Assembly (NCBI GenBank): GCA_030600555.1
Contig: JAUVLW010000002.1
Coordinates: 1,335 to 65,334, forward strand
Source: Candidatus Aenigmatarchaeota archaeon
GTDB taxonomy: Archaea > Aenigmatarchaeota > Aenigmatarchaeia > QMZS01
DNA length: 64,000 bases
Reading direction: 5' to 3'
Below the pieces are notes generated by a model. That model did not search any database. It saw only the letters and a program-made list of their open reading frames with translations, and was not told the DNA's origin. The position numbers and the translations under genes were made by a program. How positions within the stretch are numbered: position 1 is the first letter of the stretch; every line of letters begins with the position of its first letter. Positions 11,794-52,561 of this stretch are shown piece after piece.

Positions 11794-12696
11794 ATGTTGG
11801 AATCGGAATATTTTTTAGGTATTGATGCGGGAGCAACAAAAACAACAATACTTGTTGTTGATTCAAAAGGAAAAATAATATTTGAAACAAAGAAAGATAA
11901 TTTATCCCACAGGCATTTAACAGAAAAACAATTTGTAAATACTCTGGATGAAATTACTTTGTCAATTAAGTTCCCTCTTAGGTTTTCCTGTTTTGCTTTT
12001 GCGGGAATGGATACTGAGGAAGAGGAAAAGAAAATTTCAAAAATGATTAAAAAAAGCAAATTTGGTAAAATGATTAAATCAGATTTTATTGTTGTAAATG
12101 ATATTGAAACCGTATTGCCTTCTGTTGATGCGGAAAATGGGGTTGCGGCAATTGCGGGGACAGGTTCCGCTTTTTTTGCGGTAAACAAAAACAAAACTTT
12201 TAAGGCAAGTGGTGTGGGTTATTTGCTGGCCGATCAAGGCTCAGGTTATTTTATTGGACTTAAAGTTTTGAGAGCGGCGGTAAAATCAAATGATGGAAGA
12301 GGAAAGAAAACAATTCTTGAAAAGATGGTTTTCAACAGATTAAAAATCAGCAGTGTGGAAGAATTGGTGGATTATATTTATACCGGAAATCTAAAGAAAC
12401 AAATCGCGGAGTTTGCTCCTTTGACAGAAAAAGCCCTTGAGAAAAAAGACCTGGTTGCGAGAGAGATATTAAATTCAGCAGTTGATGAAATTGAGGGTGG
12501 AATTAAAGCTGTTGTGAAAAGAGCTGGACTTAAGGGAAACTTTAAGATTGCTTTAACCGGAAGCGTTTTTACAAATAAATTTATAATAAAAAATATAACT
12601 CCCAGAATTAAAAAACTTTTTCCAAAAGCGGAGATTTTCGTTGTCAAAAACTCGGCGATTGGCGCGGCGAAACTCGCAATAAAAGGAGTTAAATAA
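11794..12696 (+). CDS. BadF/BadG/BcrA/BcrD-type ATPase (N-acetylglucosamine kinase-like sugar kinase)
   Basis: N-terminal FLGIDAGATKTTILVVD phosphate-1 motif of the ASKHA fold, plus a GTGSAFFAV motif. 300 aa. Confidence 0.65.
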   Translation: MLESEYFLGIDAGATKTTILVVDSKGKIIFETKKDNLSHRHLTEKQFVNTLDEITLSIKFPLRFSCFAFAGMDTEEEEKKISKMIKKSKFGKMIKSDFIVVNDIETVLPSVDAENGVAAIAGTGSAFFAVNKNKTFKASGVGYLLADQGSGYFIGLKVLRAAVKSNDGRGKKTILEKMVFNRLKISSVEELVDYIYTGNLKKQIAEFAPLTEKALEKKDLVAREILNSAVDEIEGGIKAVVKRAGLKGNFKIALTGSVFTNKFIIKNITPRIKKLFPKAEIFVVKNSAIGAAKLAIKGVK

Positions 12697-20557: not shown

Positions 20558-21889
20558 ATGAGGAAAAACATTAATTTATTTATCTTTATTTTGGTTATTC
20601 TTTGTTCAATTAGTTCGGTTTATGGACTTGAAACCCTAAATATTCAGCAGGGAGAGCATAAAGAATTATCATTCGAAATTAACAATACTTATAATGAAGA
20701 ACTCAGGTATTCTATTTATTCTATTGGGTGGTATCCTTGGATATTTTTCTCATATTCCCAGATTTTAATTCAGCCCGGAGAATCAAAAAATATTTCTGTG
20801 TTTTTGCAACCAAGTGTAATTATCGAAGAAGGTGAATATTATATCAAATTAATTGCAAAATCACGGAAGGATGAGATTGAAAAATATCTAAAAATTATTG
20901 TCAGTGATTTAAAGAAACCTGAGGTTAAAGAATTTGTTTGTGATGGCAAAAATTTAGGTTTGGTTGTTGAGTCTGAGGAAGAATTTGGATTGTTCCTTGA
21001 TATTTATAAAGAAAACCGTTTGATAAAAAGAATAGAAGAAAATATTTCTATTGGAGAAAACAGTTTTACTTTTCCTTTGGATTCTGAATATGGAGATTAT
21101 GTGGCAGAAGCCAGTTTTTTAAAAGGGGTTGTGGTGGTTGATAGGATAAATAAATCATATTCCATCCAATATTTTGAAGGCGATAAACAGGAATCAAATA
21201 TAGTTGAAAGCAGAAGCGACTGGAATTATTATCTTGTTTCTGGTTCTAGGATAGTGTTTGATAATAGAGGGTCGATAACCGAAAATAAAAAATATTCTGT
21301 GCTTGTTGATAAATCACAGGATTCTTTTTTCAAAGCAACAGATTATAAAGATAAATTGGTTGAAGGTGATTCTTATAAATATATATGGGAATTTGTGCTG
21401 TTGCCAAATCAAAAATATGTGATTTCTCATTCTTATAATTATTCTTTGTTTCTGATAATTTGTTTGGCAATAACCTTCTTTATTATTTTGTTAAGTTTGT
21501 CGCTCAGAAGAGAAGTAAAAGTAAAAAAATTCCTTGTGAGGAGAATAAATAAATTGGAAGACGGGAAAGAAGTTGGGGTTTGTATCGAAGTTATAAACAA
21601 AACAAAACATGAATTAAACAATGTATTGGTTGAAGATTATATTCAACCTATTTTTAAATTGAACAAAGAATTCAGCGGAATAAGACCAGATAAGATTATG
21701 AAAATAGGCGCAAAAAATAAATTAGTATGGAAAGTTTCGCGATTTGAGCCAAGAGAAACAAGAGTATTTTCATACAAAATTACTCCAAGGATTGGATTAA
21801 TGGAAACTTATTCATTTTCCCTTGCAAAGGTGAGATATAAAATAAAGGATTTGGTGAAGATGGTTTTCTCGAACCAGATAACAATTTAA
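20558..21889 (+). CDS. Hypothetical surface/membrane protein (signal peptide plus one internal TM)
   Basis: N-terminal signal-like hydrophobic segment, TM at about aa 295-315 (LFLIICLAITFFIILLSL), beta-rich ectodomain composition. Confidence 0.45.
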   Translation: MRKNINLFIFILVILCSISSVYGLETLNIQQGEHKELSFEINNTYNEELRYSIYSIGWYPWIFFSYSQILIQPGESKNISVFLQPSVIIEEGEYYIKLIAKSRKDEIEKYLKIIVSDLKKPEVKEFVCDGKNLGLVVESEEEFGLFLDIYKENRLIKRIEENISIGENSFTFPLDSEYGDYVAEASFLKGVVVVDRINKSYSIQYFEGDKQESNIVESRSDWNYYLVSGSRIVFDNRGSITENKKYSVLVDKSQDSFFKATDYKDKLVEGDSYKYIWEFVLLPNQKYVISHSYNYSLFLIICLAITFFIILLSLSLRREVKVKKFLVRRINKLEDGKEVGVCIEVINKTKHELNNVLVEDYIQPIFKLNKEFSGIRPDKIMKIGAKNKLVWKVSRFEPRETRVFSYKITPRIGLMETYSFSLAKVRYKIKDLVKMVFSNQITI

Positions 21890-22548: not shown

Positions 22549-23808
22549 ATGCGGTTGTTAAGTAGATTTTTTAAGAAAAAAGAGGAAATATCAACAAAAG
22601 ACCTGAATTTTGATGAAATTGGCAGTTTTGTGGACGAAGAATTTAGAGATAAGAAACAGGAACTTTTGAAGGTATCTGAAAAATTCCGAAAGTCTTTGGT
22701 TAATCAGCTCGATTCACTGGAAGGTCTTTTCAAGAAACTTCTGGATTCTGATTTTGAACCTGTTATTTTACAGGATAAAAGAGATATTTCAAATATTGTT
22801 GAAACCAGTAAAAAGAATTATTGTTCTAATTCAGAAAAATTAATTGTCCGGGTGGTGGATTCCTTAAATGAAAAACCTTCACCTTTTAAAATAAAATCAA
22901 TTGTTTTAGAGACTTTCAACAAATTAAATAATTTTTCAAGAGAAGCTCTTATTCTTTTACACCCTTTTGGGAAAGATATGAAGTGCATAGCTTCTGGGTT
23001 GAAAGAATTTAAGAAAGAAATAGATAATTTTGAATCGTTTCTTAATTCAGATTACAAACTCATTTCTGATGTGGAAGAAGCGGAAAGAATTGTTTATAAA
23101 ATAAATCATCTTGAAGAGAATAAGATTAAATCTGGTAAAAGAAAAGTTGAATTGGATAAAAAGACAACTGAGTTAAAAAAAGAGATGAAAACCCAGAATT
23201 TAAAACTTTCTGAGCTGGTTTCTTCAAAGGAATCAAGAAATCTCGCAAAACTTGAAAAACAACAAAAAGAATTTGAGTTGCAATCAGAGAAACTTATGGC
23301 GGATGCAACGCAATTAGTCTCCAGGGTCAGCAGACAGATTAAAGGATACATTCATAATTGCAAACCCGATAAAGAACAAATAATAAAAATTGAAAATTTT
23401 CTTGATAATCCTGAATTATTGCTCCAAAAATCTAATTTTTTTGTAGATGTGATTGAGAATGTAAAAAAAGACCTTGATAAAATAGAACCAGACGAAAAAA
23501 AAAGAAAGAAATTTTTGAGTATTGAAGAAAACATAAAAGATTTAATAAAAGAAACCCAGATAAAACATAAAGAAATTTCCAATAAACTTATTGAAAATAT
23601 CGCAGCCATAAAAGAATTAAAACCCAGATTAACAACTGAAAAATTTGAGAAGAATCTTAAAAAATTGGATGAAAATATGAATCAATTGGACGAAGAAAAG
23701 AAAAATATTAAATTGGAATCTAGTGGGGATGTAGGAGAATTATTAAATGAACTTGAAAAAGTATTGTCTTCTATTTCAAATAAGGAAATAAGAATTAATA
23801 AAAAGTAG
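22549..23808 (+). CDS. Hypothetical K/E-rich coiled-coil protein
   Basis: 419 aa, strongly heptad-like K/E/L composition. No catalytic motif. Confidence 0.45.
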   Translation: MRLLSRFFKKKEEISTKDLNFDEIGSFVDEEFRDKKQELLKVSEKFRKSLVNQLDSLEGLFKKLLDSDFEPVILQDKRDISNIVETSKKNYCSNSEKLIVRVVDSLNEKPSPFKIKSIVLETFNKLNNFSREALILLHPFGKDMKCIASGLKEFKKEIDNFESFLNSDYKLISDVEEAERIVYKINHLEENKIKSGKRKVELDKKTTELKKEMKTQNLKLSELVSSKESRNLAKLEKQQKEFELQSEKLMADATQLVSRVSRQIKGYIHNCKPDKEQIIKIENFLDNPELLLQKSNFFVDVIENVKKDLDKIEPDEKKRKKFLSIEENIKDLIKETQIKHKEISNKLIENIAAIKELKPRLTTEKFEKNLKKLDENMNQLDEEKKNIKLESSGDVGELLNELEKVLSSISNKEIRINKK

Positions 23809-25174: not shown

Positions 25175-25498
25175 ATGCTTGGACTGGATTTAATTTTTGG
25201 AATTAATAGGCGAGTTAGAGGTTTACGAAGAAAGTGGTGCAGATACAGGCTAAGAGCTTTAAGATTGGAGGGTTCTTCTAAAAGCAGGATTTTAAATCAA
25301 CTGGATAGCGTAGAGCAGGAGTTAAGAACCCTGGAAGGTCAGGATTTAAGGAGACTTGACAGGAATAGAATTGCTGCATCTGTTGAACATGGGTTAAAGA
25401 ATGTATATAATGAATTATCCAGTAAAAAGAGAAAAACAGAGGCAGCGGAAGAAAAAAGAATAAGTGAACTTGAGACTGAATTGAGAGAGTATAAATAA
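25175..25498 (+). CDS. Hypothetical Arg/Glu-rich coiled-coil protein
   Basis: 107-aa ORF. The coding strand is markedly purine-rich relative to its surroundings. No motif recognised. Confidence 0.35.
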   Translation: MLGLDLIFGINRRVRGLRRKWCRYRLRALRLEGSSKSRILNQLDSVEQELRTLEGQDLRRLDRNRIAASVEHGLKNVYNELSSKKRKTEAAEEKRISELETELREYK

Positions 25499-25538: not shown

Positions 25539-27638
25539 ATGAGGAAGTGGGTTATTTTATTTTTAGGGTTTTTTTTTGTTCTTGGAATTTTTGCTCAGAT
25601 TGGGTTTTGCGAAGATGGTGGAGAAGATGAATGTGAATCGGATTGTAGTGGTTGTGAGTGTAGTAGTTGCGAAGGTTGTGTTTCTTATGGTTGTGATGAT
25701 GCTTGTGGTGTTGGCAGTCTCACTTCTTCAACTGATAAATTAATTTGGTATCATGCCAATAATCAACAAAACTCATATACTTTCAATTCTAAACAATATT
25801 ATAGTTTAACTAAAACCTTTACAAATAGGAAATATAATTGTGTAAGTTGTGGGTCTTGTGGAGATGGTTGTGGCGGAACTTGTTGCACGGATTATTGTGA
25901 TAAATGCACTTCAAATTTAATAAATTGTAAAAATTGGCAAGAATGTTATGACGATGATAATTCGGGATGTCTGGATGGTTCAACAGGATGTGAATGTGTG
26001 GATGAATATTGCGCTGGTTGGTGTATGGACAATGCTCAGGTATATGATGGATTGGCAAGTTGCACCGCTGCAAGTAATGGGGATTGGGTGATACCATCAT
26101 TTCCAAAACCCCCAGAATATATATTAAATACAAATTATCACTCTGCAAGTATGGGTGGGGGATGTTATTGCAATTATTATGAAATCAAAAATCATCATGA
26201 ATGCGATTCCGTTAATATTAAAGATTCTCATCCATGTCAATCAAGCAATTGCGCCCCGGATTTTATCCAAGGGGGTGATTATTGTTGTCCTTCCGGACAA
26301 TGTGCTCATTTAGGTTTGGATGTTGATATTTTAAATGGATTGCTTAGAAACAACAACCTTGCGGATAGTGTAGATCCTGATTTATATTGTTATTCTAATG
26401 GAGCGGTTATACAGTACCAGGGAGATTCCTTAAAATGCATCAATAGTGTGTGGAATTTTGTTACAGGTGATATTGAGGATTTTACAGATAATTGCGGGAA
26501 AACAATATATAATTTCCCTTTATTTTTTAATAACTATCCTGTATACCCAAATTCGGATAATCCTTTTTCAGGGTACAAGAACACTTACTTAGCGCACCCA
26601 CTTTCATTTCCTGGAAAAACAAAAGATATCATTGCATATATTCTACCAAATAGGGATTTTGTTAAAATACAAATTTCAAAAACCTTTTTTGATTTAGGCA
26701 CAGTTGGTGATGGAGATAATAAACTCATTCAACAATATAAGGATAGCGCCATTGTAAAATTCTCTTTATCAGAAGATATACAGGGAGAAATGTTTGATTA
26801 TTATATTGGTTGTTATACACCAAAAGGTTATGAATGCAATTATCTTTTTGATGAGTGTTGGTCAAATTCTTATTGTTCTCAGGACAATCCTTCAAATACT
26901 GCGAGTGAGGATAACGATGAAAATAAATATTATTGTTGCCCTAAAGGAACCTGCGCTCATAAAGATTCTGGTATTGAAGCAAGTTGTTATGATGAAGGTG
27001 GACACGAATTTAGCATAGATGGGAAAACTTGTTTATGGGAATGTAAGGATGAGATATGGGGTAAGAGAGATGAAGGGGAATTATGTTCCCGTGATTGTGA
27101 TTGCGCTGATTTGGAGAATATAAACAAAGAACTTTTTTGTAAAACCACTTTATATAATAAGAGCGATAAGATATGTTGTCCTGAAGGAAAATGCGGATTA
27201 AAAACCGGAGTATGTGTCGAAGAGAATGGTGTGGCTCAATCCGGCGAGTATAAAAACTGCGTGTGTCAGGGAGGAACTTGGCATTGTAAGAATATTCTTG
27301 TTAAAAATAAGAATTCGAGAATATTATTTTCAGAAGGTCTGAATACTTATAAGACAAGTTTAAAGTTAAATACTTATTTAGATAAACCCGCGCATATAAC
27401 TACAATGGTTTTCTTTGATAAAAAAAATTATAATGGAAACGTAAAAATAACAGGAACCGGTGATTGCGATATAGATAAAACTATTACTCTAGATGAGATA
27501 AATAATATTTTTGAGGAATCTATATCATCCGAAGAATATACATGCGAACTTGAAATAACCGCCCCCGATTTATTAGAAGGCCAGTATTTCTTTTACACAG
27601 GAAGTGCATTGATTTTAGAATATACTGCTTTGATTTAA
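25539..27638 (+). CDS. Large secreted cysteine-rich repeat protein
   Basis: Signal peptide followed by extremely Cys-dense segments (CESDCSGCECSSCEGC...). At least three copies of a CCP-x-G-x-C-(A/G)-(H/L) motif: DYCCPSGQCAHLG, YYCCPKGTCAHKD, ICCPEGKCGLKTG. Confidence 0.6.
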   Translation: MRKWVILFLGFFFVLGIFAQIGFCEDGGEDECESDCSGCECSSCEGCVSYGCDDACGVGSLTSSTDKLIWYHANNQQNSYTFNSKQYYSLTKTFTNRKYNCVSCGSCGDGCGGTCCTDYCDKCTSNLINCKNWQECYDDDNSGCLDGSTGCECVDEYCAGWCMDNAQVYDGLASCTAASNGDWVIPSFPKPPEYILNTNYHSASMGGGCYCNYYEIKNHHECDSVNIKDSHPCQSSNCAPDFIQGGDYCCPSGQCAHLGLDVDILNGLLRNNNLADSVDPDLYCYSNGAVIQYQGDSLKCINSVWNFVTGDIEDFTDNCGKTIYNFPLFFNNYPVYPNSDNPFSGYKNTYLAHPLSFPGKTKDIIAYILPNRDFVKIQISKTFFDLGTVGDGDNKLIQQYKDSAIVKFSLSEDIQGEMFDYYIGCYTPKGYECNYLFDECWSNSYCSQDNPSNTASEDNDENKYYCCPKGTCAHKDSGIEASCYDEGGHEFSIDGKTCLWECKDEIWGKRDEGELCSRDCDCADLENINKELFCKTTLYNKSDKICCPEGKCGLKTGVCVEENGVAQSGEYKNCVCQGGTWHCKNILVKNKNSRILFSEGLNTYKTSLKLNTYLDKPAHITTMVFFDKKNYNGNVKITGTGDCDIDKTITLDEINNIFEESISSEEYTCELEITAPDLLEGQYFFYTGSALILEYTALI

Positions 27639-29515: not shown

Positions 29516-30358
29516 TTATGTTAATTTTGGATGTACCACTATTTTTGTTTCAGCAGAAGTTACATAGGTGTAGCTTGTTGTTACTTCTATAGGAAGTTTT
29601 ACTTCATCACCAGCAGGTATTGTTACTTGCACTGTGCACGAACCTTCTCTACCGCCTTTCATTCTTATGTTGCTGCATGTTTGAGTACTACTACCAGCCG
29701 TAATTGTAGCGCTATCAATTAGATAATGTTGGTTTTCATACCTCACATTGCCGCCTCCAACATTTCTGAAAATTAATGTGATTGGAACTGTGCTTCCTGT
29801 TTTTAACACATTTTGCACCCTCACGTCAACATGGATTGGAGCGTTGCTGTTTTTTAGACTTTTTACCATAGGTATGTCTTGATTTGCTTCCATTTTTTTA
29901 ACATATTCGTTTTCAGAGAAAGCATAAACTGTTGCTATGGTATTTGTGGTGTAATCATAGTTAATATGCACTCCAACATCATAAGTCTGCGTTTCTGTTA
30001 CTTCCGGAGCTGTTGTGTCATCAGTTACTTTACATTCTTGTCCGTCTTTATTCATTTCTGCGTTTGGAGGTTTTAGTCCGGTGGTGCATGCGTTTTGAGA
30101 ATTGCTTGTCCCCCAACTTAACAAATATATGGTGCTTCCTATGTTGCTTGCTTCTGCTCCTCCAACATTTCTAAGTCTGGTTTCAAGGGTTATGGCCTGA
30201 CCAGATACCGGGTATTCCACATCAGGTCCAAAATATTCTATATATACTCCATTTGTTCCTGCTGCCATTGATGAGTCTCCGCCGGTTTCTGTACAACCGC
30301 TCATTGCTATTACTAAACCCATTAAAAAAACTACTGAAATTTTGTTATAGATTCCCAT
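29516..30358 (-). CDS. Hypothetical secreted/lipobox-like surface protein
   Basis: N-terminal hydrophobic segment ending AMSGC (lipobox-like), then a T/S/G-rich beta-type ectodomain. Confidence 0.5.
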   Translation of the reverse strand: MGIYNKISVVFLMGLVIAMSGCTETGGDSSMAAGTNGVYIEYFGPDVEYPVSGQAITLETRLRNVGGAEASNIGSTIYLLSWGTSNSQNACTTGLKPPNAEMNKDGQECKVTDDTTAPEVTETQTYDVGVHINYDYTTNTIATVYAFSENEYVKKMEANQDIPMVKSLKNSNAPIHVDVRVQNVLKTGSTVPITLIFRNVGGGNVRYENQHYLIDSATITAGSSTQTCSNIRMKGGREGSCTVQVTIPAGDEVKLPIEVTTSYTYVTSAETKIVVHPKLT

Positions 30359-40147: not shown

Positions 40148-41686
40148 TTATTCAGAGAACTCTATCTCTTTTTTAAGTGTTGTGCTTGATTGGTATTCCA
40201 TACTCATTTGAATCTTTTCTCTTGGGTCTTTAATATAAGGTCCGCATGTTATTTCACCTCCGGCTGGAATATTGCCTGTGCATGTTGTTCCATCAAATTT
40301 TAAATTTTTTGGCGCAGTTGCTTCATTTCCATTATTTCGAATAGTTACTTCCACAGACATCTGATCCACATCAGTTTTTCTTTCACAAATACCTCTTCTG
40401 CATTCGCATCCAGAACTGCATTCGTTTCCATTAGGACATTTATCTATTTCTTCCACACCATCCACAATATGAGTGCAATATTCATAATCATAGCTAACAT
40501 CAATAACCTCAGATTCAATAACAAAAGGAGACCATTTAGTGTAGACTTTTTTATCCCCTATCGAATTTCCTGTAGATAATTCATATTCCAGGGTTGTTGT
40601 ATAGGTGATTGTGGCTGAAACCTCTGCGGTTGTGCCTGCGTCCTGATGGGTTCTTATAGTTAATCCAAGACGACATTCTTTAGTTTCGCCAGAACCAACA
40701 ATTCCTTCGCAATTATTATTAATCATATACTGTTCAAAATAAGTGGGATAATTATAATCAATGTCTTTAATAGTCAAAGGAACCTTATTATTATTTTCAA
40801 CTTCAAAAGTAAGTGTTATTTGCGAAGTTGTGGGATATATTTTTTCAACTGAGGAATCAAAATTAAATTCTGCATCATCTCCAACTCTGCTAGTATCTGT
40901 TGTAGGATCTGTTGGGATATATTCTCCTTCCCCTTTAAGAATCATAAAATTTAAATATTTTATTTCCCTGTAAGTATATTCAATTTCCATATCGAAATTT
41001 ATTTCTTCGAGCTGGTCCGGGTCTCCGCTGAATTCGCATGAGACTGTGTTTGTGAATTCATTTATTTCTTCGCACATAATATCGTCGCCGTATATTGAAT
41101 CAAAATCCAGAATTCCGTTCATTCTTGGAATTAGTTTAATTGTAGCCCATGCGTTTCCTGTGTCTATTGGAGGATTTTTGTTTAATTCTATTTCTACATT
41201 CACAAGCCGGTCTGCTAAAGTATATATTTTTGGCTGTTCTTGAATTGGCTGTCCGGCAATTTCTTGTTCTATTGCGTATTCGCGGTCTGTAAATAAAATT
41301 GGAATGTGGAAATTGGATATTTTTAGTACCTGCACCTCAACGCTTATTCTGGATGGGATATCTGCGCTGATTTCAGGAGCCCCTAATTCCATTTCAAGGG
41401 TTTTTTTCTGCAAACCCTTTAGTTCTTCATCGCCAAATGAATCTGAGATAATAAAGATTCCCCCGTCCATTATTTTCCCGGAAACTTCATATTCTTCCAG
41501 TTCATCAAGGTTGTCAAAAGTCAGGTAAAGGAATGTTTTTTCTCCGGATTTAAGAGTTGTTAAATCAGATTCTAAAGTAATAATTAAGGGCTGTATTTGT
41601 CTTGGTGTTTGGTCATCAAGAAAAGGAATGGTGCATCCAGATAAACTTATTAAACAGATAAGCAGGAAGGGAATAATCTTATTCAT
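40148..41686 (-). CDS. Hypothetical secreted lipobox-like surface protein with Cys-rich C-terminus
   Basis: Signal peptide ...LICLISLSGC, long acidic beta-rich ectodomain, C-terminal CPNGNECSSGCECRRGICERK cluster. Confidence 0.5.
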   Translation of the reverse strand: MNKIIPFLLICLISLSGCTIPFLDDQTPRQIQPLIITLESDLTTLKSGEKTFLYLTFDNLDELEEYEVSGKIMDGGIFIISDSFGDEELKGLQKKTLEMELGAPEISADIPSRISVEVQVLKISNFHIPILFTDREYAIEQEIAGQPIQEQPKIYTLADRLVNVEIELNKNPPIDTGNAWATIKLIPRMNGILDFDSIYGDDIMCEEINEFTNTVSCEFSGDPDQLEEINFDMEIEYTYREIKYLNFMILKGEGEYIPTDPTTDTSRVGDDAEFNFDSSVEKIYPTTSQITLTFEVENNNKVPLTIKDIDYNYPTYFEQYMINNNCEGIVGSGETKECRLGLTIRTHQDAGTTAEVSATITYTTTLEYELSTGNSIGDKKVYTKWSPFVIESEVIDVSYDYEYCTHIVDGVEEIDKCPNGNECSSGCECRRGICERKTDVDQMSVEVTIRNNGNEATAPKNLKFDGTTCTGNIPAGGEITCGPYIKDPREKIQMSMEYQSSTTLKKEIEFSE

Positions 41687-46919: not shown

Positions 46920-47225
46920 TTATGGACATAAACATGCTTTTTTTGCTTCATCTTCTTTTGCAACTCCATAAGTTTTATTAAGATAAGGATAAATAAACTC
47001 ACCTTCTTTATTAATTATATCAAGTTTATCCACACAAGGACCTGTTTCCGCTGAAATCCACATTATGCATTCACCGCGCAGATTATTTTCTTCATTGATT
47101 GTGTTAATCTCTTTATTCCATCCACTAAATATAAAAGTTATAATAACCACCAAAATAAAAATAGCAACAATAAGATAGACAATCGGACTTATTTTGAGGT
47201 CCCCTTCCAATTTATTTTTCATCAT
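46920..47225 (-). CDS. Small membrane protein co-transcribed with the secretion ATPase
   Basis: 101 aa, single TM (ISPIVYLIVAIFILVVIITFIF). Its start overlaps the ATPase stop. No class III signal peptide seen. Confidence 0.4.
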   Translation of the reverse strand: MMKNKLEGDLKISPIVYLIVAIFILVVIITFIFSGWNKEINTINEENNLRGECIMWISAETGPCVDKLDIINKEGEFIYPYLNKTYGVAKEDEAKKACLCP

Positions 47226-48705
47226 AAATATAATTTTCTATTTCTTTTTGAACTTCATACATATCAAATATTTCTTTTTTCACGAGTGAAAGCAAAAATT
47301 TCCCCCTATTTTCAATAATTTTTTTAATTTTTTCAGGATCTATTCCCTGATTTATTGAAATTTTTTCAAGGATGCGGCTCATGGGAGTATATTCAAAAGA
47401 ATCAGTTCTTGAATCATAACCAACAATTATTTTGGTTTCAGCAACTCCTCGAACTTCATCTATTTTAATAAATTCTTCAATCTTTTTCACTCTTCGGTTA
47501 AGGTTGTTTTTATCTTCGTTTTTAGTGACTGTAATAATAATATCCAATAATTCTATAAGGGACGAAGGCAGGTTAATTGGGGGTGTTTTTAATCTTGAAA
47601 TAACTGAATGCACATCTTCAGAGTGGAATGTTGATAATGTCGGGTGCCCGCTAGCCATACCCTGAAACATTACATATGTTTCTTTTCCTCTAACTTCACC
47701 CACAACAACATATTCAGGATTTTCCCTAAAACTTTCTCTCAGTAATTTATTTAAATCAATTTCACCTATTTTCAGTCCGCCAATAGATTCTCTGCTTACA
47801 GTTGCAATCCAGTTGCCATGATAAATTCTGATTTCTCTTGTATCTTCAATTGAAACAATTTTTGAGTTTGAAGGGACAAATGTCAATAAAGAAGTTAATA
47901 ATGTTGTCTTGCCTACTCCGGCTCCGCCAATAATCAACATGTTTGATTTGTGTTCTATCAGGTACCATAGATAAGCAAATGCTTCCGCGGATATGGTGTT
48001 TGATGAAATTAATTCTGTTGGGGAGAACGGAATTCTTCTGAATTTTCTTATTGAGAAATTAGGTCCTTTGGGACTTATTTCTTCTGAAATAGTTCCTTCG
48101 ATTCTGGAACCATCTGCCAGACTACCTTCAAGGAAAGGATCCGAATAGGAAATATGCTTGTTGCATCTTTGCGCAAGCTTGATTATAAAATTTTTTATAA
48201 GTTCATTATTTTTGTAAATTATATTTGTTTTCATATTTCCGAATAACCTGTGTTTAATATATATTTCTGTGTTCAGACCATTGCAGTTTATATCTTCTAT
48301 ATAATCATCCTGCATCAACCCTTCTATTTCATTAAGTCCAACAAAATTCCTGTAGATATAATACATTAGTTTGTTATAACTTTTTTCAGAAACCTGATAA
48401 TTATATTCATTCATGAGAAATTTAATTTTAATCTCAAAATATTTGATAAGTTCCCCTTTGTTTTTGAAATCCATCGGAGACAAATCTATTAATTGCAATA
48501 ATCCATCATATAATTTGTTAAATATTGCAATTTCTTTTTTTGTTAATTTTGGTTCTATGAGTTCATACACAATTTCTTTCCCCTGATGATGTATGGAGAT
48601 ATCAATAAAATTTTCTATTAATGTATATTTCATATCTATTTTTTTCAGGTCTTTAGGAATTTTAATTTTTGGATTAACTTCTTTTAATTGAAACATAATT
48701 AACAT
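47212..48705 (-). CDS. Type II/IV secretion-system ATPase (archaeal FlaI/TadA/VirB11 family)
   Basis: Walker A IIGGAGVGKTTLL, Walker B and His-box region in a 497-aa ORF with a FlaI-like N-terminal domain. Confidence 0.8.
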   Translation of the reverse strand: MLIMFQLKEVNPKIKIPKDLKKIDMKYTLIENFIDISIHHQGKEIVYELIEPKLTKKEIAIFNKLYDGLLQLIDLSPMDFKNKGELIKYFEIKIKFLMNEYNYQVSEKSYNKLMYYIYRNFVGLNEIEGLMQDDYIEDINCNGLNTEIYIKHRLFGNMKTNIIYKNNELIKNFIIKLAQRCNKHISYSDPFLEGSLADGSRIEGTISEEISPKGPNFSIRKFRRIPFSPTELISSNTISAEAFAYLWYLIEHKSNMLIIGGAGVGKTTLLTSLLTFVPSNSKIVSIEDTREIRIYHGNWIATVSRESIGGLKIGEIDLNKLLRESFRENPEYVVVGEVRGKETYVMFQGMASGHPTLSTFHSEDVHSVISRLKTPPINLPSSLIELLDIIITVTKNEDKNNLNRRVKKIEEFIKIDEVRGVAETKIIVGYDSRTDSFEYTPMSRILEKISINQGIDPEKIKKIIENRGKFLLSLVKKEIFDMYEVQKEIENYIYDEK

Positions 48706-51973: not shown

Positions 51974-52561
51974 ATGAAAGGAAACTCAATAATCTGGGCT
52001 TTTGTATTAGGTCTTTTAATAATTGCGGGACTATTATTTATGGAAGGAGTTTCAGATTCACCCACGGGCGGAGATAATTCAACAGGAAATGTTTCGGTTG
52101 CAAAGAAAGTTTTGTTGAAAACCACTTTAGGTGATATTACGATTGAATTATACGGAGATATGCCAATTACCATAGGTAATTTTGAGGAATTGGTTGAAAA
52201 AGGAACCTATGATGGCGTAATCTTTCATAGGATTATTCCTGGGTTCATGATTCAGGGCGGAGACCCAACCGGAACCGGATATGGGGACCCAACAATACCA
52301 AATATCAAAGATGAATTTACCCATGAGGGAGGAAACAGAAATGAGAGAGGAACAATTTCAATGGCAAATGCGGGACCAAACACAGGTTCAAGCCAGTTCT
52401 TTATAAATCTTGTTGACAACAGTTTCCTTGATACCAAACATCCTGCTTTCGGGAAAGTTATTGAGGGAATGGATGTGGTTGACAAACTCGGAAAAGTGCA
52501 GACAAAACAGGGCGATAGACCTGTTGAAGAAGTTAAGATAATTAAAGCGGAGATGATTTAA
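51974..52561 (+). CDS. Peptidyl-prolyl cis-trans isomerase, cyclophilin type, with N-terminal membrane anchor
   Basis: Cyclophilin motifs FHRIIPGFMIQGGDPTGTG and SMANAGPNTGSSQFFI. Confidence 0.85.
   Translation: MKGNSIIWAFVLGLLIIAGLLFMEGVSDSPTGGDNSTGNVSVAKKVLLKTTLGDITIELYGDMPITIGNFEELVEKGTYDGVIFHRIIPGFMIQGGDPTGTGYGDPTIPNIKDEFTHEGGNRNERGTISMANAGPNTGSSQFFINLVDNSFLDTKHPAFGKVIEGMDVVDKLGKVQTKQGDRPVEEVKIIKAEMI

Follow-up and report, generated by a model that had tools for sequence, protein, structure and literature searches.

A cysteine-dense modular gene of a narrow archaeal family

What does a DPANN archaeon do with a long protein that is extraordinarily dense in cysteine and matches no described domain? 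The question is raised by a gene in a 64,000-nucleotide stretch of a Candidatus Aenigmatarchaeota genome (assembly GCA_030600555.1, contig JAUVLW010000002.1, positions 1,335 to 65,334), which we call the window. The gene is an open reading frame (ORF) at 25539..27638 on the + strand, with an ATG start and a stop codon at 27636-27638, and encodes a modular, Cys-rich protein of 699 amino acids (aa) that is predicted to be secreted. From its sequence and modeled structure, we favor, with about even confidence, the interpretation that it is an exported surface or secreted binding protein of the adhesin or lectin type of this Aenigmarchaeota (DPANN) archaeon.

A first-pass annotation of the window had described a signal-bearing ORF of extraordinary Cys density with at least three spaced copies of a CCPxGxC motif, and each of these points was confirmed. 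The N-terminus consists of MRK followed by ≈20 hydrophobic residues in all full-length homologs. The protein contains 59 Cys residues (8.4%), compared to 1.57% Cys in the 59 large ORFs of the window taken together and ≈1.3% when this gene is left out; no other ORF exceeds 4.2%. There are exactly three CCP.G.C matches, which lie at aa 249 (within DYCCPSGQCAHLG), aa 466 (within YYCCPKGTCAHKD), and aa 546 (within ICCPEGKCGLKTG), and the Cys-rich string CESDCSGCECSSCEGCVSYGCDDACG is located at aa 32-57. The chance expectation for this amino acid composition is 0.0011 matches, and 22 of 20,000 shuffles of the protein contained at least one. CC-x4-C cores are found at the same three positions throughout the protein family described below, such that CC-x4-C is the strict family-wide core. 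The statement that no domain could be recognized was likewise borne out, as searches of Pfam at E up to 10 (EGF-like and laminin models included) and of NCBIfam at E up to 1 gave no match.

The same annotation had considered a non-coding frame improbable, and we can be firmer. Across 11 sequences, 17 Cys and several Trp, Gly, and Pro residues are invariant. Nei-Gojobori ratios of nonsynonymous to synonymous substitution (dN/dS) against three orthologs are 0.05-0.27 in the three repeated modules and 0.09-0.29 in the two beta-sandwiches delimited below, and reach 0.42-0.60 only in the least conserved, N-terminal region (aa 57-200; 32-45% identity to the orthologs). With dN/dS of 0.05-0.6 in every region, the gene is under purifying selection. 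An AlphaFold2 (AF2) model, built from only 26 sequences, has a mean predicted local distance difference test score (pLDDT) of 78.1, with 525 residues at or above 70. Coding status is therefore certain, because the full-length orthologs in conserved synteny, the invariant Cys residues, the dN/dS values, and the confident model all agree; a chance ORF or pseudogene, for which nothing speaks except the missing annotation, has a negligible probability.

The family to which the protein belongs is very narrow. When 1.84 billion cluster representatives were searched with a HMMER profile, 22 proteins scored at E up to 1e-3, 20 of which are family members or fragments, and a word-indexed search of 5.8 billion proteins returned 11 relatives. 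The family comprises about 25 proteins, all named 'hypothetical protein' at their source. The named relatives and all taxonomically labeled long contigs come from Candidatus Aenigmarchaeota or Aenigmatarchaeota metagenome-assembled genomes (MAGs), and Guaymas appears in the names of relatives' MAGs. The sole exception, probably a binning error, is an incomplete copy on a 2.4-kb contig assigned to Bathyarchaeota. When Pfam was run on all 26 family members, the only matches were Lcl_C in three members and one weak match to Fib_succ_major. Searches of PDB sequences with the whole protein and with a profile of the module hairpin yielded nothing meaningful. A module-only profile run against the 5.8 billion proteins gave 12 word candidates, none of which scored, although the word index is unsuited to 40-aa queries. 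Our literature searches on Aenigmarchaeota and DPANN archaea, covering Cys-rich, surface, extracellular, adhesion, and symbiont topics, found no paper on this family. What is new here is an undescribed family and a Cys-rich module that is missing from Pfam and NCBIfam, while the kinds of parts and the kind of role proposed for them are familiar.

Three homologous modules and two beta-sandwiches

How is the protein built? In the predicted architecture, an N-terminal segment would be followed by a string of independently folded beta domains, in which a variable N-terminal domain precedes three homologous modules interleaved with two jelly-roll beta-sandwiches. Residues 1-23 (25539..25607; this and the following features are on the + strand) form a signal peptide or N-terminal membrane segment, as judged from sequence, conservation, and an AF2 helix at aa 2-18, and a Cys follows at aa 24. 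The context of C24 (Q-I-G-F-C, with Phe at -1) departs from the lipobox pattern [LVI][ASTVI][GAS]C, and the residue is present in 8 of 15 homologs; canonical lipoboxes, MSGC and LSGC, occur in two other proteins of the window. From this N-terminus we infer that the protein is exported, in which case it may be held by an uncleaved or lipid-modified N-terminus or be released.

Behind C24 lies a labile, low-complexity, CxxC-dense stretch (aa 24-56; 25608..25706) and then the variable N-terminal beta domain (aa 57-200; 25707..26138), which AF2 models with strands at aa 60-137 and a helix at aa 155-165 and which holds a second Cys-rich stretch, a loop at aa 101-123. The model gives pLDDT below 50 for aa 18-49 and for both Cys-rich stretches. 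The lability of the CxxC stretches is seen in the many Cys columns that are filled in only 1-6 of 15 homologs and in the varying length of aa 24-56.

Module 1 (aa 201-312; 26139..26474) consists of a Cys-rich lead-in, a CCPSGQC clasp at aa 249-255, a long loop, and the hairpin CYSNGAVIQYQGDSLKCINSVW. It is followed by beta-sandwich A (aa 313-424; 26475..26810), which is apparently closed by a C319-C425 disulfide. Module 2 (aa 425-512; 26811..27074) has its CCPKGTC clasp at aa 466-472 and the hairpin CYDEGGHEFSIDGKTCLWECKDEIW, contains invariant Cys residues, and was modeled as a fragment with a pLDDT of 85.7. Module 3 (aa 513-586; 27075..27296) carries the CCPEGKC clasp at aa 546-552 and the hairpin CVEENGVAQSGEYKNCVCQGGTWHC. 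The chain ends with beta-sandwich B (aa 587-699; 27297..27635; AF2 strands at aa 586-695, pLDDT about 85-93), and no C-terminal membrane anchor comes after it.

The three modules are homologous by profile comparison of family sub-alignments, in which hhalign gave probabilities of 96% and 95% for module 1 against modules 2 and 3 (96%, 95%, and 88% for the three pairs, with E values of 2e-9, 5e-8, and 3e-6). Their shared core reads [YFI]-C-C-P-x-G-x-C-[AG], a loop of 4-30 aa, C-[YV]-x-x-G, the hairpin, and C-x-x-G-x-W. In the proposed fold, each module would be stapled by disulfides, with the CC-P-x-G-x-C clasp packed on a three-stranded hairpin that bears a conserved Tyr and Trp. A simple duplication of a module plus a sandwich was considered and is unsupported, since hhalign detected no relationship between sandwiches A and B or between either sandwich and the N-terminal domain.

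Other family members elaborate on this core. Domains of about 70-240 aa are inserted in module 2 of P0005, P0008, P0009, P0013, P0017, and P0021. In P0005, P0008, P0009, and P0013 (loci L015, L006, and L013), the insert is ≈130-240 aa long, lies between CSQDNP and YCCP, and carries W-K-Y...DW...D-x-x-W motifs without matching any Pfam model; possibly it serves as a further binding domain. P0003, P0004, and P0007 extend past sandwich B with Cys-rich repeats, to which P0004 and P0007 also add Lcl_C.

Paired loss of cysteines points to disulfides

Do these Cys residues bind metal or form disulfides? Pairing was deduced from co-variation of Cys occupancy in the 26-sequence alignment. All five variable pairs, C250/C284, C319/C425, C498/C520, C574/C583, and C643/C669, are lost strictly together. 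For example, P0012 alone has Glu in place of C498 and Asn in place of C520, and seven sequences have lost both C574 and C583. Because Cys residues are lost in pairs, unlike the ligands of three- or four-ligand metal clusters, the alignment points to disulfides in the conserved part of the protein. If so, a C250-C284 bond would join the hairpin unit, at its first Cys, to the second Cys in the CC clasp; C319-C425 would seal sandwich A, and C498-C520 would bridge modules 2 and 3.

The first-pass annotation had offered attachment, a metal-binding factor, and a toxin-like factor as guesses. A metal- or redox-active protein in which Cys residues act as ligands, either for metallothionein-like sequestration of metal or sulfide in hydrothermal sediment or for Zn or Fe as in the variable surface proteins (VSPs) of Giardia, would suit the CxxC-dense, poorly modeled stretches at aa 24-56 and 101-123, whose composition is metallothionein-like, and a habitat that is reducing and metal-rich, as the Guaymas names of the MAGs suggest. 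Yet these stretches are the least conserved, the modules and sandwiches lose their Cys strictly by pairs, and Pfam found no match to metallothionein or VSP families of the CXXC type, so that this explanation of the protein is quite unlikely. A metal-binding or cross-linking role is open to the N-terminal CxxC stretches themselves. The presence of many apparent extracellular disulfides in an organism of reducing sediment would in turn raise the question of how such proteins are oxidized and kept folded.

Resemblance of the module to carbohydrate-binding and adhesive domains

If the modules are disulfide-stapled, what might they bind? The sole credible match of the family profile outside the family is P0027 (E 2.4e-7), a 354-aa protein with an astacin/matrixin-like metalloprotease domain followed by four repeats, four stretches of which aligned to aa 245-304. 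Pfam identifies the P0027 repeats as CBM_5_12 (E 1e-9; 38.7 bits compared to a 26.2-bit cut-off), and their best PDB match is a weak one to the ChiA1 chitin-binding domain (1ED7; E 0.27). Aligned by hhalign, the module-1 hairpin and the P0027 repeats gave a probability of 96.5% (E 9e-10) over 25 columns, a short match through a single intermediate. The C-terminal half of the module, Y-x-x-G-x-x-[IV]-x-Y-x-G-x-x-[YL]-x-C...W, which is predicted to be a small antiparallel sheet, resembles carbohydrate-binding module family 5/12 (CBM5/12; PF02839), whose archetype is the chitin-binding domain of Bacillus circulans ChiA1. Plausibly, this half, the hairpin, is a relative of CBM5/12 that is divergent and braced by disulfides. 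The family cannot, however, be counted as CBM5/12 on the Pfam model: none of its 26 members attains the gathering score, and the window protein has no CBM_5_12 match at E up to 10. On its own, the hairpin peptide matched nothing in Pfam beyond a weak hit to DUF1496. A second outside match, P0028 (E 2.5e-6), which has Ig-like repeats and no Cys, was discounted, as its alignment to the region of sandwich B is driven by repeats.

In shape, the module is closest to the small disulfide-stapled hairpin modules of animals, which were the only solved structures retrieved for the module pair. Fibronectin type I, vWC, the IGFBP N-domain, and the Cys-rich modules of VWF and mucins are likewise ≈40 aa long with two- and three-stranded sheets held by disulfides, and, like the modules here, they sit between larger beta domains (as in CUB-EGF-CUB proteins). 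The module lacks the six-Cys pattern and fold of EGF-like and laminin-type EGF domains, which also gave no Pfam match, and it lacks the knottin (inhibitor cystine knot) fold. It does not correspond to granulin, a 12-Cys ladder with four CC pairs, as each module has a single CC pair and Pfam found no granulin match.

A further resemblance comes from the relatives. Three of the 26 family members, P0004 and P0007 among them, append Lcl_C (PF07603) to the same core, as in Lcl-type adhesins; the Lcl adhesin of Legionella binds host glycosaminoglycans. In the window protein, the chain stops after sandwich B and the C-terminal extension that holds Lcl_C is missing, so that the likeness is one of guilt by association; these add-ons suggest, by analogy, that the core operates in an adhesive context.

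Genomic position, divergence, and likely function

Is the protein a fixed part of the cell envelope or a binding protein? The window is an AT-rich (≈32% GC) segment of archaeal chromosome with housekeeping genes for GatE, prefoldin beta, an aIF2/IF-2-like GTPase, TIM, a Hel308-type helicase, DnaK, POR, NurA, and a Toprim protein. The order conserved among the closest genomes is SBP, a 443-aa gene, L21e, a 419-aa gene, DJ-1, prefoldin (- strand), a 107-aa gene, the Cys-rich gene, and GatE (- strand), whereas remoter family members lie in other genomic contexts. Thus, the gene is chromosomal and single-copy, and its position is not fixed. A scan for promoters and terminators around the gene gave background levels, using bacterial models that are uninformative for an archaeon.

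The Cys-rich gene is also the fastest-diverging in its syntenic block. In full-length comparisons to the three orthologous loci, the protein is 67%, 60%, and 53% identical, compared to 71-94% for its neighbors. Such divergence, together with the plastic domain complement, is what surface recognition proteins typically show. In Nanoarchaeota, too, it is the hypothetical surface proteins that have the highest nonsynonymous diversity (PMC6142677), and like these fast-evolving DPANN proteins, the window protein is lineage-specific and unannotated, has an N-terminal hydrophobic segment, and has the highest local divergence. In contrast, the Nanoarchaeota proteins were not reported to be Cys-rich (the word 'cysteine' does not occur in PMC6142677), and no sequence relationship between them and the window protein was found.

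These data bear on whether the protein is instead a structural component of the envelope, such as an S-layer-associated, wall, or matrix protein, whose disulfide cross-links stabilize the surface without recognition of a partner. The signal-like N-terminus, the all-beta multidomain build, the single-copy chromosomal gene among housekeeping genes, and a low-complexity Cys-rich N-terminal stretch that could cross-link are all compatible with that role. However, the family is confined to a narrow subset of Aenigmarchaeota, its genomic position varies by clade, its domains are gained as insertions and Lcl_C add-ons, the gene outpaces its neighbors in divergence, and Pfam detected no S-layer or anchor domain. 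Because of this narrow range, variable position, plasticity, and fast divergence, a binding protein fits better than a core envelope lattice, and we consider the structural role unlikely.

As a binding protein, it would engage glycans or glycoproteins on a surface multivalently, through three CBM5/12-like hairpins and the CBM-like sandwiches; this mechanism is proposed because the hairpin seems to be a remote relative of CBM5/12 and the sandwiches are CBM-like in fold. Most plausibly, it would target either a polysaccharide substrate or the cell envelope of a host or partner, and specificity might be tuned by the fast-diverging N-terminal region, the lineage-specific insertions, and the C-terminal add-ons. 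Of the functions guessed at in the first-pass annotation, binding or attachment is the one now favored, while the guess of a metal-binding factor is opposed, for the modules, by the paired loss of Cys, and that of a toxin by the lack of any catalytic or pore-forming domain in our searches. More generally, a secreted effector, be it a toxin, an inhibitor of proteases or other enzymes, or an antimicrobial aimed at competitors or a host, is very unlikely: the scores that support it are below significance or come from generic receptor-binding sandwiches, a multidomain protein of 699 aa is unlike a peptide toxin, and no immunity or secretion genes adjoin the gene.

A more specific version of the binding interpretation, which we regard as possible but doubtful, is that one Aenigmarchaeota clade uses the family as its host-recognition adhesin. 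The family would then be an independently evolved prokaryotic mosaic in the manner of CUB-EGF-CUB proteins, in which a new module of a CCPxGxC clasp plus a CBM5/12-like hairpin binds host envelope glycans multivalently, with the N-terminal domain and insertions setting host range, possibly under control of the 107-aa protein encoded upstream. The remaining probability is assigned to an explanation outside the readings considered here.

We know of no Aenigmarchaeota with a known host or attachment mechanism, and the proteins of cell-cell contact in DPANN archaea are mostly unannotated hypotheticals. The Cys-rich gene provides a concrete attachment candidate, with a well-folded prediction, defined module boundaries, five predicted disulfide pairs, and a testable class of ligand, namely glycans. 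If it encodes merely another lineage-specific surface protein, its value is limited to annotation.

Neighboring genes and other exported proteins

The 107-aa gene (25175..25498, + strand) ends 40 nt upstream of the Cys-rich gene and encodes a basic, coiled-coil-like, lineage-restricted protein with only 5 homologs in 5.8 billion proteins. Its identity across the orthologous loci is 80-93%, which makes it far better conserved than the Cys-rich protein. A homolog (33% identity, E 3e-13; L005 5667-6011) sits directly upstream of the gene for P0011 and overlaps its beginning; P0011 is a distant family member whose surroundings otherwise differ from those of the window locus. The 107-aa gene is absent beside family members of the LH_S clade. 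Its product may be a functional partner or regulator.

Two other conserved members of the syntenic block have no family match: the 443-aa protein (20558-21889, + strand), which combines a signal peptide with a late transmembrane segment, and the 419-aa protein (22549-23808, + strand), which is highly charged and coiled-coil.

The first-pass annotation had also named a second Cys-rich lipobox protein at 40148-41686 (- strand). The lipobox-like signal of this 512-aa protein, LISLSGC, was confirmed, but it contains only 14 Cys (2.7%), with a small Cys-rich patch, CPNGNECSSGCECRRGICE, and it matches no Pfam or NCBIfam model. Paralogy to the Cys-rich protein was rejected (best BLASTP E 0.25). The protein at 29516-30358 (- strand; 280 aa) has a canonical lipobox, AMSGC, and no family match; it is 83-88% conserved beside GatE in the orthologous loci.

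N-x-S/T sequons are depleted in the Cys-rich protein (1 compared to 7.3±2.4 expected) and in the lipobox proteins at 40148-41686 and 29516-30358 (0 compared to 4.2 and 0 compared to 3.6 expected, respectively). Sequon z-scores are negative in most family members, and eight cytoplasmic controls lacked depletion. Selection against N-glycosylation of proteins predicted to be exported is a possible cause of this depletion.

Elsewhere in the window, a cyclophilin-type peptidyl-prolyl isomerase with an N-terminal hydrophobic segment (51974-52561, + strand) may act outside the cytoplasm as a folding catalyst, which could matter for the folding of exported proteins. A T2SSE-type ATPase of the type IV pilus or archaellum kind (47212-48705, - strand), after which comes a 101-aa membrane protein containing 4 Cys (46920-47225, - strand), may mark a surface-filament locus ≈20 kb from the Cys-rich gene. 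Finally, the 29516-30358 lipoprotein gene is duplicated in locus L003 of the RS_11_5 MAG, where two short ORFs matching GatB_N (110 and 46 aa) and a second, 281-aa copy of the gene lie downstream of GatE (12187-12693), in what looks like a local duplication with gene fragments.
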